Shown here: in pieces, positions 1 to 5,329 of the stretch
Layout: the number at the start of each line of letters is the position of its first letter
Position numbering within the stretch: position 1 is the stretch's first letter
DNA from: Pseudobacteriovorax sp.
Lineage (GTDB): Bacteria; Bdellovibrionota_B; Oligoflexia; Oligoflexales; Oligoflexaceae
NCBI GenBank assembly: GCA_050293845.1
Contig: JBNKNM010000203.1
Span: forward strand, 1-10,129
DNA length: 10,129 nt
Direction: 5' to 3'
Notes under the pieces: model-generated
Told to the model about the DNA's origin: nothing
Seen by the model: only the letters and a program-made list of their open reading frames with translations
The model's database searches: none
Made by a program: the position numbers and the translations under genes

Positions 1-1023
1 ATCGCTATTAGTATCATAAAAAGACAGCTTGGAAGGTTTGGCGGCTCCAATACCCATTTCACCAATAAACTCAGTCAATGATTCGTTTTCTGCGTACTTA
101 GCATCATATATATAATTGCTAAAATAGTCATATTCAAATTCAATTTTTGGCTCTTGTGCACCGCTAGCAAATGTTTTGGTTATAGCTGTCAAAAAATTGG
201 TGTAATGTAGGTCTGGTACCTCATAATCAATGGAATATGTCCAACGAGACTTAAAATCGCCTTGATCCATTTGCTGGAAATCGATAGATTTTACAACTCG
301 ATCTAAAACGACATTATGCCCCGACCGATAGTTGGAAGTTTGCCTTGTTTCAGGTAGTTGATCGTATGTATATACGAGTCTATTATAAAAATTCGTTCCC
401 CGACCGGCAAACCTTATGCTATCGATGAAATAATTCCCGCTATCATTTTGAACATAGTCCACTACTGTTTCAAAACCTTCACGATTTACAGCTTTTACTA
501 ATACCCATTGAAAGACGGTATCCTGTTTTCCCAAGATAGCTACGGAAAAATACATAGTAGAATAATCTGGAAATTTAACAATTAAATCCTTGTTTTCTGC
601 AAGTTCTATTCTAATAGCTGCTTTTAACCCATGGGAATAATATGCCCCATCATCTCCCAGAACGAAGCGACCCCATGGGGTCGCAAGTTCGTCCGAGGAA
701 GTAAAGGTGAGGTCTGATTTAGGGTTGGTACGGTGAATCTGATAAGCGGATTTCCAACCGATACCGTATTCACTGATCCCGTTTTCAGGAGAGTAAACGG
801 GGAAGGGATTGAATAGTAAAGGTCCAAAGGATTGATCCACGCTCATTCCGCTTGGGTGAGAGAATGAACCTTGGGTTAAATCTGATCCCTCAGCTTGAAA
901 TGAATGGAAAGTACCTCCCACTCCCCCCGCAATGGGCGGCTTAATTTTAATTGGTTGGTAGTCAATATCTGCCAGAACTATTTGTGTAAAAAATAACAAG
1001 CTAAGGCTTAGAAGCTTTTTCAT
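1..1023 (-). CDS. N-terminal 341 aa of a secreted SpvB/TcB(TcaC)-N-terminal-domain protein, probably an RHS/YD-shell toxin (3' end outside window)
   Basis: Not in the ORF track; hand-translated. ATG at 1023 overlaps the upstream TGA (ATGA), with an AGGAG RBS, and there is no stop down to base 1. It begins MKKLLSLSLLFFTQIVLA|DID (Sec signal peptide). Motifs occur in SpvB/TcB order: YSPENGISEYGIGW (795-754; cf. YNSGxGNGxFGLGW), WVLVKAVNREGFETVVDY, FIDSIRFAG, SNYRSGHNVVLDRVVKSI (cf. SxYRxGFEVRTxRxC), LTAITKT...EPKIEFEY, then FYDTNSD (start of an FG-GAP/VCBS-like repeat). Confidence 0.88.
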   Translation of the reverse strand, partial: MKKLLSLSLLFFTQIVLADIDYQPIKIKPPIAGGVGGTFHSFQAEGSDLTQGSFSHPSGMSVDQSFGPLLFNPFPVYSPENGISEYGIGWKSAYQIHRTNPKSDLTFTSSDELATPWGRFVLGDDGAYYSHGLKAAIRIELAENKDLIVKFPDYSTMYFSVAILGKQDTVFQWVLVKAVNREGFETVVDYVQNDSGNYFIDSIRFAGRGTNFYNRLVYTYDQLPETRQTSNYRSGHNVVLDRVVKSIDFQQMDQGDFKSRWTYSIDYEVPDLHYTNFLTAITKTFASGAQEPKIEFEYDYFSNYIYDAKYAENESLTEFIGEMGIGAAKPSKLSFYDTNSD

Positions 1024-4000
1024 AGGGCATACTCCTGCATCAATGTTGGATTAGTTGAAGATCCGCAGCTCCTTGGCCAGGTAATATCTCCTGTGGATTC
1101 AAAAGCGACCTTATATACAAACAAAATATCGGAAAAATTTTCTCTATAGCAGTCAAAGCAAAGATATCCTAATGCTTCCCCTAAACCTCTCACTTGAGAA
1201 AGCTTATTGGTTGTGAAGGGAGATAAGCCTATTCCTGTATTATCTGCATAGCTCTTCGAATTTAATAGGTCTACTGAACGGCCTAAAAACGGTTCTTTAA
1301 TGAACCCCACTCCCAAAGCTTTATTCGTAAATCTAGAATCTGTCAGGGTGTATTCCCGTGGGCCATCTTCAAAAGGAAATTCGAGCCTAGGGCCAAATTC
1401 GACCTGTACCGACATTCTTTCACTATTTAGCCCGCTAATAACATAGTCATCAATGGCATCTTGCTTGGCTACCATGACCATCATCATGTCCTTATTGACA
1501 GCTTTTATGTTCTGGCAGTTCAAGTTACCTGTCACTAAACTGTCTCGATAAAAGTCATTAATACTTGTTTCAACAGTCATCTCATCACCATCTTTGAAAA
1601 TAGTGTCCCATATTACTTTAGAACGAGATAAATCAGAAACAGGATAGCCAAGGTTATAGCCGGGGAACGAATCATAGGGATTTGGAAATCTGAGAACCAA
1701 GTATTTAGTTTGGCTAGTGCTATTATAAATCGAATCGCTATCTGAAAAATTACTTTCAATTCGATCAAGATTATCTTTTAGCCCAAGGAACAGGGAGGTA
1801 AAATCATCGCTGACATTTGTATCTATGGACTGAATTTGGTTTTTTATATCGACCAGAGCCTTCGGATAATGGAAATCAATCATCGGTAGTGCGACATATT
1901 CTGCATAATCAAGAGCATTAAAAACCATGTCAACCAGGTAGGTATTATCAAGATTAGTTAGTATATTCTGTAAGCGCAGTTGCTTTACAAAATCTAGGGT
2001 CTCCGCACTTGCGCGATCTTTTCGTAGCTGGCTTAATTTTTCAACAACGACCTCAACCTCTCGGCCTAGTTGCTTTAGTTTTGCCATACGTTCAATTTTT
2101 AGGGTCTCATTATTGAGCCAAAAGTCAAAAACATCTCTTAGTAATGGAACATCATAGAAAGAGATCCCATTAGCCAGGGCAAAATTGGCTATAATTCGTT
2201 TGTTAAGATTATTCACTTGAAGAGTTATATCTGTACCCTCATTAAGTATAGACCGTGCTTGTCTTTCCACTTCTCCTAAGGCTGCTATAAATTGCCTCAT
2301 AAGCTCTCGACCTTCGGCAGCTCCTATAGTTTTAGTTACTTTAAGGCTTAATTTATTCGATGTATCGCTATTGTTGTTGCAATCATTGACTACAAAATAG
2401 ATATCGCTATTTTGCTCAACGAAAATTTGTGTGCTGGAACCTACTACATAAACATCCTTAGTGTCTGTCAAACTAGCATTTGATCTAGGTTGCACAAATG
2501 CTAAAAGACTTCCCGCCGGAAAATCAAAAAATGGGGCTGATTCATGTCGGTAGCCAATGGTAAAATGTGCCGTCATATCGTGTCGATCTGATTCTGAAGT
2601 CGTTTCATTCGTAAATTCAGTATTGCGGTCATGGTGAGAGTCACCGTTACAAGTAGATTCTCTCACAGTACCATTAGGGATGATATCGCAAGTATCTTTT
2701 CCCGAATAAACATCATCTTCGTTTACAGAAGTTTTGCCATTTTCAACTGAGGAAACTGTTGCTGTTCCAGACGTATAGTCGATAATGAAACCTTGTGGAC
2801 CGAAAAGAGGATGAATAGGATCTGGGAATAGATCTGAATTATTGATTGCACAACTAGGCGAATAGGTTCCTGTTGTGGAAATAGTTATTAGCGATCCAGC
2901 TTCAACCTCAATTTTTTTGATATTTAAGCTTGATAGATTTTTGTTTGTACCGTCATATTTCGCGTCTGTAGCATCAACTGAAATTGGTGTATTTCCACCG
3001 ATAACATTTGAGGTGATAAAATACTCTGAAAGGATAGAACTTCGATCCTCAATCACGCGATTATACTGCTCTAAGGAATTGGTATTGTCAGCAATTGCCA
3101 TCTCAATACCTAGAATATCTTCGTTTAATGCATCACGTTCCTTTTGCGCCATTCTAATACTAGAATCAAGATTGTCAATATCACGTCCATTAGAAATAAA
3201 ATCGGAAATTTGCGTTAATAGCTCGTTTCTTTTTGTCGCATCAAAACTGTTGATGCGATTTGATAGCTCTAATGTTCTATCTGAAAGACGCCTTAATATA
3301 TTTGTTCTAAAAGAGCTATCAAATCCGGTGTAAAGATTATCAATTCCTTTTGCATTGAAAAACCCGGTGCCTTCCTTTGATTCAAGCATAAGGAAGAAAT
3401 TTTTAAATCTACTTACAAATGTTTTAGTATCGTCCGGGACATAGGTAATATCCATTCGAGAGAAATTCCCGCTTGGAAGCCAACCTTGTAGCAAGGATCT
3501 ATTATCAAAAAGAATATTTGAAATGGAAATAATAGCAGTATCAGTAAAATTTTCATTTCTAATCCCCGGTCTTAAAAACTTAGTTAATGCCAAAAGGTTC
3601 TGATAGGTTCTTGATTGACTAGGATCTGAGCATTCTTCGATGGCACAGTGAAAATCCTCGATTCTCGCTAATAGCTTTATTCTTTCATCAACTGGTTCAA
3701 GCAATACATCTATAAAAGTAAGGGAAAATTTTGAGGAAACACTAACATCAAATTGATCCGAAATCAGTTGAGCGGCCCATTCTAAATTCTGTGCAGTGGT
3801 TAGATTTTGCAATAATTTAAGATTATTCACTAAAGCTAAAAACTCACCAATAATAGATTTTGCATCGGTCTCAATGGTATTAGATGCCATTTCTTCCATG
3901 ATTAAATACCATTGGTGAATATTGTAGAAAAACCCCTGTTGATTATCATGATTGATCACATTATTTGAATCAACAATCTCGCTCATCACCCTTGAAATTG

Positions 4001-4256: not shown

Positions 4257-5329
4257 TGTTCTTCTCCTAAGTCTTTAAATTCTGAAGTGATACCCAATCT
4301 TGTTTGAATCATTTTTGTAGCTTGAAATGAAGCAACACTCGACGGAGCAAAGCTACTGGATTTGAAGGATGCTAGAAGATGGTTATATGTCCAAAATAAT
4401 TGAGTGTCATCTAGCCACTTATCATAATCTACAATTATTGTTTCAAAGATATAGTTAATCTCTTCGATCTCTACATCGGATAGTATGCTTTCTGGAAAGA
4501 CAGTATTTCTATCTTCTACTATATCTTGTAAGCTTTCAAATTTAGTTTGCAATTCATCGCGGTTACTCGCAGGTAAATCATCACCTGTAGTACAAACTAG
4601 AGTTGGGAGGGCTAAACCGTTTTCGGGTGTATTTGTGCTGTTATGAGGGAAGTCGTAGACATGTTTGCCAAGATCAAGCCTGATAGCTTCCGAAGGATTT
4701 TCAAAGCTACAGTACTCAGTTCTTAAGCTTTTCCTATAGCTTTCTATCAAGCAATTTTCGTATTTGTAGTCTGTGCCAATTTGATTGCAATAACTGTCAG
4801 CTACCTTCTTGTAAGTAGCTTTTTCAATCAGTAAGTTACATTTATACTTAGTTACCCATCCTAAATTTGGGCAAGGTTCGGTGCCTGGATCTGGTATTGG
4901 AGTTAAGCCAAAACCACATTCTTGAAATCTATTCACATCCGAATAAGAAGCGGTTCCTCTTTGGCCCTGACCAATTGTACCTAGTTTTGCATTGCAAAGC
5001 TGTTGTATTTTACTATTGCTCGCATAATTTAGTTCAACACCTTTCTTTGACCATTCTTTCACCTTATCCCATTTTTCTACCGGGTGATGTGAATCTCTAC
5101 ATGCCTCGTATATAGGGGTTGCTTCTTCAACTGGGCATCTTGAGTCACTATTATTTTCACCCCAAATTTCTACTAGAGGGTGCATTTCACTCTGACACAG
5201 ATTGTATCGAAGATATCCCCACTTTCCATAACATTGTCCCAAACCATGTCGCCATTGAATGTTTGTTTGTGCATCTGCTATAGATGTTATTAACAAAACT
5301 ACAGTTATAAATATCGTTTTCATATTCAC
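4253..5329 (-). CDS. 358-aa secreted cysteine-rich hypothetical protein
   Basis: AAAGGGTGA RBS before the ATG. Signal peptide MNMKTIFITVVLLITSIADA|Q. Twelve Cys, all before an acidic helical C-terminus. The stop overlaps the next ATG. Confidence 0.85.
   Translation of the reverse strand: MNMKTIFITVVLLITSIADAQTNIQWRHGLGQCYGKWGYLRYNLCQSEMHPLVEIWGENNSDSRCPVEEATPIYEACRDSHHPVEKWDKVKEWSKKGVELNYASNSKIQQLCNAKLGTIGQGQRGTASYSDVNRFQECGFGLTPIPDPGTEPCPNLGWVTKYKCNLLIEKATYKKVADSYCNQIGTDYKYENCLIESYRKSLRTEYCSFENPSEAIRLDLGKHVYDFPHNSTNTPENGLALPTLVCTTGDDLPASNRDELQTKFESLQDIVEDRNTVFPESILSDVEIEEINYIFETIIVDYDKWLDDTQLFWTYNHLLASFKSSSFAPSSVASFQATKMIQTRLGITSEFKDLGEEQ

Follow-up and report, generated by a model that had tools for sequence, protein, structure and literature searches.

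What do two exported proteins without a recognisable family do immediately upstream of the start of an RHS toxin gene? The question is raised by contig JBNKNM010000203.1 of a Pseudobacteriovorax sp. genome (6.68 Mb in 741 contigs, 41% G+C), and the whole of that contig (C203, 10,129 bp) is the window analysed here. Tc toxins are huge, unsecreted, mostly gammaproteobacterial complexes with insect and mammalian targets. We propose, with a probability of roughly 0.6, that three minus-strand genes of the window encode a small relative of the Tc (ABC) toxins, exported through Sec, whose A component is divided between two genes. We favour this Tc-like reading because the top fold matches of the second gene are all to TcA, the third encodes a TcB-like RHS partner, and genes of these two kinds are strictly adjacent wherever their order could be read. 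The three genes are the following (ORF, open reading frame).

4253..5329, minus strand: gene 1 ('A1'), a Cys-rich protein of 356-358 residues (ORF and translation).
1020..4256, minus strand: gene 2 ('A2'), a TcA-like lipoprotein of 1078 residues (AlphaFold2 model, Foldseek, family profile).
1..1023, minus strand: gene 3 ('BC'), the N-terminal 341 residues of an RHS protein of TcB/TcC-like type with a Sec signal (match of its family profile to YenB and TcdB1).

A preliminary description of this locus had reported three minus-strand genes joined by ATGA overlaps and bearing Sec, lipoprotein and Sec signals in that order, and both points are confirmed by the ORF coordinates, the junction sequences and the translations. 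At 4253-4256 the end of gene 1 (358 residues, ...caa TGA) overlaps the start of gene 2 (ATG aag), and at 1020-1023 the end of gene 2 (...cta TGA) overlaps the start of gene 3 (ATG aaa). Gene 3 runs to the contig edge without a stop, its 3' end open, because the window is all of contig C203. The export signals were read by eye from the translations: gene 1 begins with the Sec-type signal MKTIFITVVLLITSIADA, followed by QTN, gene 2 with MKIILLLTVLLSLAAC and the lipobox L-A-A-C, and gene 3 with the Sec-type signal MKKLLSLSLLFFTQIVLA, followed by DID. For gene 1, the ATG at 5321-5323, with AAAGGG upstream, is a more likely start than the GTG at 5329, two codons further out. None of the three proteins has a match in Pfam, NCBIfam or PHROGs. 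No terminators were found at the gene junctions of the operon, and promoter-like sites are not enriched in the window (27, compared with 23.9 +/- 4.2 in shuffled sequence).

The likeness of gene 2 to TcA emerged from predicted structures. We modelled the protein with AlphaFold2 using 52 homologues (mean predicted local distance difference test, pLDDT, 81.5) and modelled its C-terminal half (residues 640-1078, pLDDT 89) separately. When the whole model was compared with the PDB using Foldseek, ranks 1-19 were all TcA-type chains (XptA2, TcdA1, XptA1, TcdA4, TcaA-TcaB and YenA2), with E values from 4.3e-5 to 4.6e-3 and probabilities of 0.97-1.00. For the C-terminal half, the first 20 listed rows (ranks 1-21) were again all TcA (E 3.4e-6 to 6.1e-4), and the next family, viral jelly rolls, followed at E 7e-3 with a probability of at most 0.33. 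The model divides into the segments below.

3357..4166, minus strand: all-helical N-terminal domain, residues 31-300, with conserved cysteines (model secondary structure; its matches are generic helical repeats alone).
3021..3317, minus strand: long descending helices, residues 314-412, aligning with the TcA channel hairpin in its first half (model, VIA-align).
2322..3005, minus strand: residues 418-645, a beta-sandwich of LecA/PA-IL type where the helical hairpin turns, with motifs WSPxCA, PAGSLL and VVNDC (VIA-align, motifs).
2565..2792, minus strand: Ser/Thr-rich long beta-hairpin with a Cys-flanked tip, residues 489-564 (model strands 489-518 and 537-564).
1725..2321, minus strand: ascending helices, residues 646-844, aligning with the second half of the TcA channel (model, Foldseek, VIA-align).
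1095..1718, minus strand: residues 847-1054, an alpha/beta domain at the C-terminus that is similar to the TcB-binding domain, with an invariant G-x-G-L-S-P-F (VIA-align, motif).

Structural alignment with VIA-align placed residues 304-1054 of the model collinearly on the last ~500 residues of TcA, namely 2006-2516 of TcdA1, 2042-2537 of XptA2 and 853-1344 of YenA2, with Z scores of 7.2-9.6 and a root-mean-square deviation (rmsd) of about 19-23 Å that is large because the helices are oriented differently. The available text on TcdA1 puts the end of its last shell domain at residue 1972 (PMC6795518); therefore, the stretch matched by gene 2 is the linker, channel and TcB-binding region. Within it, residues 847-1053 align with the TcB-binding fragment of TcdA1 (6l7i_A, 2327-2516; Z 5.7, rmsd 3.9 Å, 133/179 residues), residues 757-1053 align with XptA2 2279-2540 (Z 7.1, rmsd 6.4 Å, 226 residues), and the C-terminal domain with the last helices scores Z 6.9 over 223 residues against TcdA1 (range 6.5-7.1 over 200-231 residues); these TcB-binding-domain scores all fall below the caution line of Z 8, under which a VIA-align match can reflect a common arrangement. 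At the level of fold, then, the predicted model has a channel-like helical hairpin followed by a C-terminal TcB-binding-like domain, in the same order as TcA. A neuraminidase-like domain, a large helical shell and Ig-like receptor-binding domains were not detected in gene 2, either with Pfam or in the model, whose residues 31-300 gave generic matches.

At the sequence level, gene 2 is much harder to place. A word-indexed search returned just two distant homologues, and an exhaustive profile search was required to recover the family, which comprises 401 representatives at E<=1e-3 (227 of them at E<=1e-30). The three paralogues in the genome are 20-24% identical and alignable over their full length. 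The closest named homologues come from Bacteriovoracaceae metagenome-assembled genomes (MAGs), and family members are annotated in their sources as 'hypothetical protein', as 'PA14 domain-containing protein' (Pyxidicoccus xibeiensis) and, once, as 'SlyB'. Many members are 1300-1900 residues long through extension at the N-terminus, and in 6 of 27 sampled homologues this extension carries PA14, ricin-B, FG-GAP, P-domain or DUF346 domains. The export signal lies at the start of the gene.

4209..4256, minus strand: signal peptide and lipobox of gene 2, residues 1-16, with LSLAAC at residues 11-16 and Cys16 as the putative lipidated residue (translation).

The lipobox cysteine is invariant across the three paralogues, and a simple pattern finds a lipobox-like N-terminus in 73 of 152 family representatives. 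Gene 2 itself (P0002) has no match to the Pfam TcA_TcB_BD profile (PF18276) at E<=10. We conclude that gene 2 lies outside the TcA sequence family and that its link to TcA is made by the fold of a predicted model together with genomic context; on that footing it seems to be a TcA relative of half the size and very distant. The preliminary description had a lipid-anchored protein replacing TcA. The place given to the lipoprotein is upheld by the TcA-only top Foldseek matches and by its constant adjacency to RHS genes, and what has to be amended is the notion of a mere replacement, the protein looking itself like a remote member of the TcA lineage.

Several homologues depart from the usual gene layout. 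In the subclade of loci L025 and L027, the A-like proteins begin with Sel1/TPR repeats, and a P-loop protein with a signal peptide is encoded between the A-like and RHS genes (L025 4307-5875, L027 2047-3483); these P-loop proteins match the GTPase family MMR_HSR1 weakly (E 7e-6 and 1e-4), and an exported GTPase-like protein would be unusual. At L024 (G032:C87, 147-3208), the A-like gene consists of two overlapping ORFs of 567 and 477 residues, still beside an RHS gene, and is probably a frameshifted or decaying copy.

The turn of the channel hairpin is where gene 2 is most distinctive. Canonical TcA has hydrophobic loops at this turn, according to the accessible part of PMC11435725, and gene 2 has a 230-residue insert in their place. 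In the predicted model, residues 418-645 adopt the LecA/PA-IL fold: the sandwich aligns with LecA (1l7l) at Z 10.2 and rmsd 2.8 Å over 115/121 residues, and with PllA and EclA at Z 9.4-9.6 (VIA-align). The most conserved motifs of the whole family (WSPxCA, PAGSLL and VVNDC) sit in this insert. From the sandwich projects the long beta-hairpin, which across the 52 homologues contains 28% Ser plus Thr, compared with 15% protein-wide. At least two cysteines surround its tip in 37/52 homologues, and in 26/52 the 12-residue tip window is uncharged, rich in Gly, Ala and Val, and has a mean hydropathy of at least 1.0. Foldseek also gave weak matches (E 0.15-0.3) between the hairpin and the stems of the beta-pore-formers CytK, alpha-haemolysin, NetB, CDTb and Ib. 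We hypothesise from the model that the hairpin may be a membrane-insertion element.

A cocoon protein of the kind bound by TcA is encoded next to gene 2. A profile built from 21 members of the gene-3 family, the window's fragment among them, matches YenB at its N-terminus (E 4.5e-19; profile 31-133 on YenB 5-106) and residues 5-102 of TcdB1 at E 2.3e-8. Gene 3 by itself (P0001) has no match to Pfam SpvB even at E<=10, and a single-sequence search of the PDB gave no TcB match. The SpvB/TcB motifs that had been called clear are therefore clear only at profile level. One paralogue reaches Pfam SpvB at E 1.6e-4, short of the cut-off, and none of 18 RHS partners from other genomes matches it at E<=1e-3; the same 18 partners contain FG-GAP_3 in every case, RHS_repeat in 17 and TcdB_toxin_midN in six.

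The same genome carries two paralogous triads, on contigs C14 and C216, whose RHS proteins match gene 3 at E 2.4e-47 and 4.8e-39. The C14 copy is complete (1840 residues), with FG-GAP repeats, RHS repeats and an RHS-core-like C-terminus; its tip resembles the RhsA deoxyribonuclease (6xtd, E 4.6e-22), and a 151-residue ORF follows. The propeller, RHS shell, RHS core and toxin tip that the preliminary description had anticipated beyond the contig edge are thus present in this full-length paralogue and in orthologues. A core motif of the PxxxxDPxG type is exact in three of eight relatives and a near-variant in four, the eighth being cut by its contig end. Partner tips vary among loci and include TreTu_C, Ntox10 with PT-HINT, Peptidase_C80 and RhsA-DNase-like domains. 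Two other contigs of the genome, C110 and C297, open with 5'-cut RHS bodies of the gene-3 subfamily, each followed by a small ORF, and the body on C297 starts with an FG-GAP repeat; the window's gene 3 probably continues on one of the two. To judge by its family, gene 3 encodes the beginning of an RHS toxin in which TcB- and TcC-type parts are fused.

Small ORFs of 137-169 residues, none with a family match, follow the RHS gene in C14, L019, L021, L022, L023, C110 and C297 and are candidate immunity genes. Together with the nuclease-type tips, they suggest that the targets are bacterial. In the RHS core of the subfamily (for example L005, 580-6099), a conserved Cys pair, C-x-x-S-P-x-E-C, lies shortly before the NLYSYA...DPxG cleavage-type motif, a pairing that would fit folding in an oxidising compartment. 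The RHS ORF of the C216 triad (8151-9146) meets a stop 44 bases short of the contig end; either an artefact of the assembly or truncation of this copy may account for it.

The pairing of A-like and RHS genes is conserved well beyond this genome. Most of the outcomes that the preliminary description had named as speaking against it thus failed to appear. The A-like gene adjoins an RHS gene of the gene-3 subfamily in 31 of 31 informative loci from two phyla: 3/3 in the genome itself, 6/6 in relatives (the gene-2 family occurs in 5 of the 40 searched), 2/2 in a collection of genome contigs, and 20/20 in a second phylum, to which a MAG titled Myxococcaceae belongs. This last sample took 20 of 50 listed places, in 20 genomes covering the full score range, and was chosen blind to neighbours; the RHS gene lies downstream on the same strand in 17 of the 20 and is divergent in three. 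Usually the two genes overlap or nearly touch. Three metagenome loci are uninformative on synteny, their contigs ending before the expected RHS position. The gene-2 family is no rarity: it was found in 40 of 301 sampled genomes of the second phylum, and the phylum to which the window belongs has it in 6 of 131 genomes.

Within its own genome (96% complete), the A-like gene occurs only in its three copies, and five other large RHS genes lack it. The canonical TcB-binding domain of TcA (PF18276) is absent from this genome; thus, the gene-3-type cocoons have no other A partner there. These other large RHS genes, at least five in number (2018-2433 residues; C185, C194, C237, C34 and C129), lie outside the A-linked subfamily, and several short fragments consisting of an RHS core plus tip (C284, C501, C442, C87 and C376) look like orphan toxin cassettes. 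The gene on C194 combines canonical SpvB, FG-GAP, TcdB_toxin_midN, RHS and Ntox24 domains and has a different Cys-rich neighbour.

Where does the remaining protein of the operon, the Cys-rich product of gene 1, belong? Its N-terminal region carries the motif W-R-x-G-x-x-x-C-x-G-x-W-x-Y-x(5)-C. In seven loci, the proteins encoded upstream of the lipoprotein gene are mutually related and share an N-terminal C-x-G-x-W-x-[YFW]...C. The preliminary description regarded gene 1 as a disulfide-rich accessory that had been added to the system. Instead, a hidden Markov model (HMM) of eight gene-1-type proteins matches about 250 residues of the N-terminal extension in 31 of 152 long gene-2 homologues (E-values being relative to the 152-sequence set), and the motif alone is found in 38 of the 152. 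On a metagenome contig of high G+C (L029), a fused lipoprotein bears both Cys-rich motifs before an A-like core. An unrelated accessory is therefore rejected, gene 1 being fused to the A-like protein in homologues. To judge from these sequence matches, gene 1 is a detachable N-terminal module of the A component, and the window holds a split A (A1 plus A2). There are precedents for a split A in TcaA/TcaB and YenA1/YenA2, with which the PDB titles of our Foldseek matches agree. The ESM Atlas gave no usable match for the gene 1 protein.

The Cys-rich part of the system varies among loci. In the C216 triad (L006), an extra gene encoding 305 residues (3652-4566) lies between the Cys-rich and lipoprotein genes. 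At L020 (1949-4534) and L021 (626-3349), the separate A1-like protein is much larger, at 862 and 908 residues, and one of these enlarged proteins has a weak beta-propeller match, far under the curated cut-off. Such enlarged proteins suggest that variable binding modules are added to A1.

Based on these results, we propose the following course of events. All three proteins would be exported across the inner membrane by Sec. Genes 1 and 2 would together form the A component, with a channel-like helical hairpin and a TcB-binding-like C-terminal domain, and the lipoprotein would be sorted to the outer membrane and oligomerise there, by analogy as a pentamer. The fused TcB-TcC cocoon of gene 3 would enclose the variable C-terminal toxin and dock through its propeller on the C-terminal domain of gene 2, and the toxin tip would then enter a neighbouring bacterial cell by being threaded along the helical channel. 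Targeting may fall to the lectin-like and Cys-rich modules. The PA14 and ricin-B-type N-terminal domains of homologues support this Tc-like reading, as they parallel the receptor-binding domains of TcA.

A number of observations weigh against the proposal. We know of no characterised TcA with a lipid anchor. None of 40 gene-2 family members matches Pfam TcA_TcB_BD (PF18276) at E<=1, and the 52-sequence profile of gene 2 found no TcA chain among its 58 PDB matches at E<=10. The rigid-body scores are modest (Z 5.7-9.6, with whole-chain rmsd of 19-33 Å), and an rmsd of 3.9-6.6 Å is reached solely over the C-terminal 133-231 residues. In an unbiased VIA-align search of the C-terminal half against 48,161 representative chains, generic helical matches dominate and TcaA-TcaB stands at rank 42. 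The hairpin tip of the window's own copy is short and polar, not hydrophobic, and the hairpin was modelled at low confidence (pLDDT about 40); for these two reasons membrane insertion is offered here as a hypothesis. Finally, the window's RHS gene is cut short, and its propeller, shell, tip and immunity gene are visible in relatives alone. A complex prediction pairing residues 860-1114 of the C14 lipoprotein with residues 318-650 of its RHS partner scored 0.00; it was run without controls, a 1:1 pair is a poor stand-in for a pentameric dock, and the result is evidence neither way.

The main rival to the Tc-like reading is that the lipoprotein serves as an export or surface-display factor in the outer membrane of the producer, as TpsB does for TpsA, and injects nothing. 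The Sec signals on all three proteins and the lipobox on the A-like one would suit such a factor, as would its strict adjacency to the RHS gene, and the long beta-hairpin could become part of a barrel in the outer membrane of the producer; the route by which Sec-dependent Rhs proteins of diderms reach the surface is described as unknown in the available text of PMC10433427. However, what the fold matches best is a toxin translocator and not a known outer-membrane secretion component, and a LecA-like tip with PA14 and ricin-B domains suits target recognition better than export. We regard this explanation as unlikely, though deserving of serious attention.

An alternative that we likewise hold to be unlikely, if worth entertaining, keeps the injector and changes its location. 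The complex would reside in the periplasm, fastened to the outer membrane on its inner leaflet with its channel pointing toward the cytoplasmic membrane, and firing would follow outer-membrane exchange, vesicle fusion or invasion by a predator. Lipid anchor and docked cocoon would be located at the outer membrane, and the ~90-residue helical channel, lengthened by the ~30-residue beta-hairpin, would make a hybrid alpha/beta translocon whose length roughly equals the width of the periplasm. Such a device would fire in whichever cell receives the complex, the producer being protected by its immunity protein. If true, it would be a new contact-dependent route for Sec-exported Rhs toxins in diderms and, among Tc-like machines, the first whose tip is a beta-barrel.

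Improbable, in our view, is the idea that the lipoprotein acts alone as a pore-forming toxin or a lectin adhesin, encoded on the same toxin island as the RHS protein and regulated together with it, but forming no complex with it. The LecA-like sandwich (Z 10.2), the Ser/Thr-rich hairpin with its hydrophobic, Gly/Ala-rich tip in 26 of 52 homologues, and the weak Foldseek matches to beta-pore-former stems are what one could cite for it. Yet adjacency in 31 of 31 loci across two phyla is much tighter than co-residence on an island, the five large RHS genes without an A-like gene indicate that the latter tracks one RHS subfamily, and the C-terminal domain resembles a TcB-binding domain. Least probable of all, and very doubtful, is that the TcA likeness is a modelling or search artefact of long helices beside any beta domain in a protein with an unrelated periplasmic role such as RHS chaperone or scaffold, an idea that draws on the lack of sequence similarity to TcA, on modest Z scores (those below 8 perhaps marking a common arrangement) with large whole-chain rmsd, and on our own suspicion that solved structures may have taught AlphaFold2 such TcA-like arrangements, but that sits poorly with TcA-only top Foldseek matches for two separate models (probability as high as 1.00, and the next family clearly set apart), with a match collinear to the very C-terminus, and with a genomic partner of exactly the kind that TcA binds.

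Returning to the Tc-like reading, we compared the operon with the Tc (ABC) toxins of Photorhabdus, Xenorhabdus and Yersinia. In common with them, it has a cocoon with a TcB-like N-terminus and, in relatives, a propeller, RHS shell, core and variable tip; a neighbour whose C-terminal half, in the predicted model, resembles in fold and order the TcA channel plus TcB-binding domain; variable binding-type domains on homologues of the A component; and an A split in two genes, as in TcaA/TcaB and YenA1/YenA2. The differences are as clear. The A component here has about 1080 residues (1430 with gene 1), in contrast to about 2500 for TcA, and is not recognised as TcA by sequence methods. It carries a LecA-like domain and a long beta-hairpin at the channel tip, B and C are fused, and small candidate immunity genes follow the toxin in full-length loci. 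The hosts are Bdellovibrionota-like and Myxococcota-like. The proteins bear Sec signals and a lipobox, whereas YenTc is released by lysis, according to the text available (PMC10847048). A census of Tc loci, in the part accessible, assigned 96.4% to Proteobacteria and 3.2% to Firmicutes using a TcA sequence profile (PMC7861908); such a profile would miss the gene-2 family.

Toxins combining a signal peptide, SpvB, a propeller and RHS were catalogued in 2012, with TcdB as the sole associated component named in the available sections of that work (PMC3482391). Gene 3 and its relatives share the architecture and variable tips of these TcdB/TcaC-type polymorphic toxins (Zhang et al. 2012), and the same sections mention no A-like lipoprotein partner (PMC3482391). 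In Myxococcus xanthus, Sec-signal Rhs proteins that do not depend on T6SS (type VI secretion) take part in kin discrimination by a delivery route described as unknown in the portion of the report available (PMC10433427). These too are large, signal-bearing Rhs proteins of a social or predatory diderm; Rhs4 and Rhs5 differ in being about 4000 residues long, as given in that portion (PMC10433427). Bacterial teneurin-like proteins (TLPs), as the accessible text presents them, are toxins with a YD-shell that bear lipoprotein or Sec signals; they are enriched in Myxococcota and built of FN-plug, NHL and YD-shell (PMC13018210). Our RHS profile matches them in the C-terminal shell region only (E 3.5e-39), whereas the proteins studied here have a TcB-like N-terminus, an FG-GAP propeller in 18/18 cases, no NHL match and a separate A-like partner. 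An assignment of gene 3 to the TLPs was rejected on the FG-GAP-type propeller and TcB-like N-terminus of its family. No TcA-like lipoprotein partner of Sec-dependent Rhs proteins was found in the literature searched, a search that did not cover subscription journals and supplements. We conclude that signal-peptide SpvB-propeller-RHS toxins were already known, and that their TcA-like lipoprotein partner is without a description that we could find in the literature searched.

The remainder of the window holds genes of other kinds. Directly upstream of the operon, an 86-residue protein and an overlapping 287-residue protein without a family are encoded on the minus strand (5370-6478); the smaller one matches a helix-turn-helix (HTH) regulator weakly (phrog_18104, E 2e-4), and also the N-terminus of AimR (E 0.0084). 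Divergent from these, at 6684-6974 on the plus strand, lies a gene for a 96-residue Xre-type HTH_3 protein (E 8e-9). It is possible that these genes are local regulators of the toxin operon. Three ORFs at 7378-10127 (284 and 111 residues on the plus strand, 524 residues on the minus strand running off the contig edge) have no match in Pfam, NCBIfam or PHROGs.

If the Tc-like reading is true, a half-size, lipid-anchored, Sec-exported A component that sequence searches cannot see would define how little is needed for the translocation core of Tc toxins, and its lectin-like insert with the long hairpin would represent a different solution for a membrane-inserting tip. The pair of A-like and RHS genes is a candidate delivery route for T6SS-independent Rhs toxins that can be tested by knock-out, being present in culturable myxobacteria, and it may answer how such toxins leave the cells of some predatory and social bacteria.

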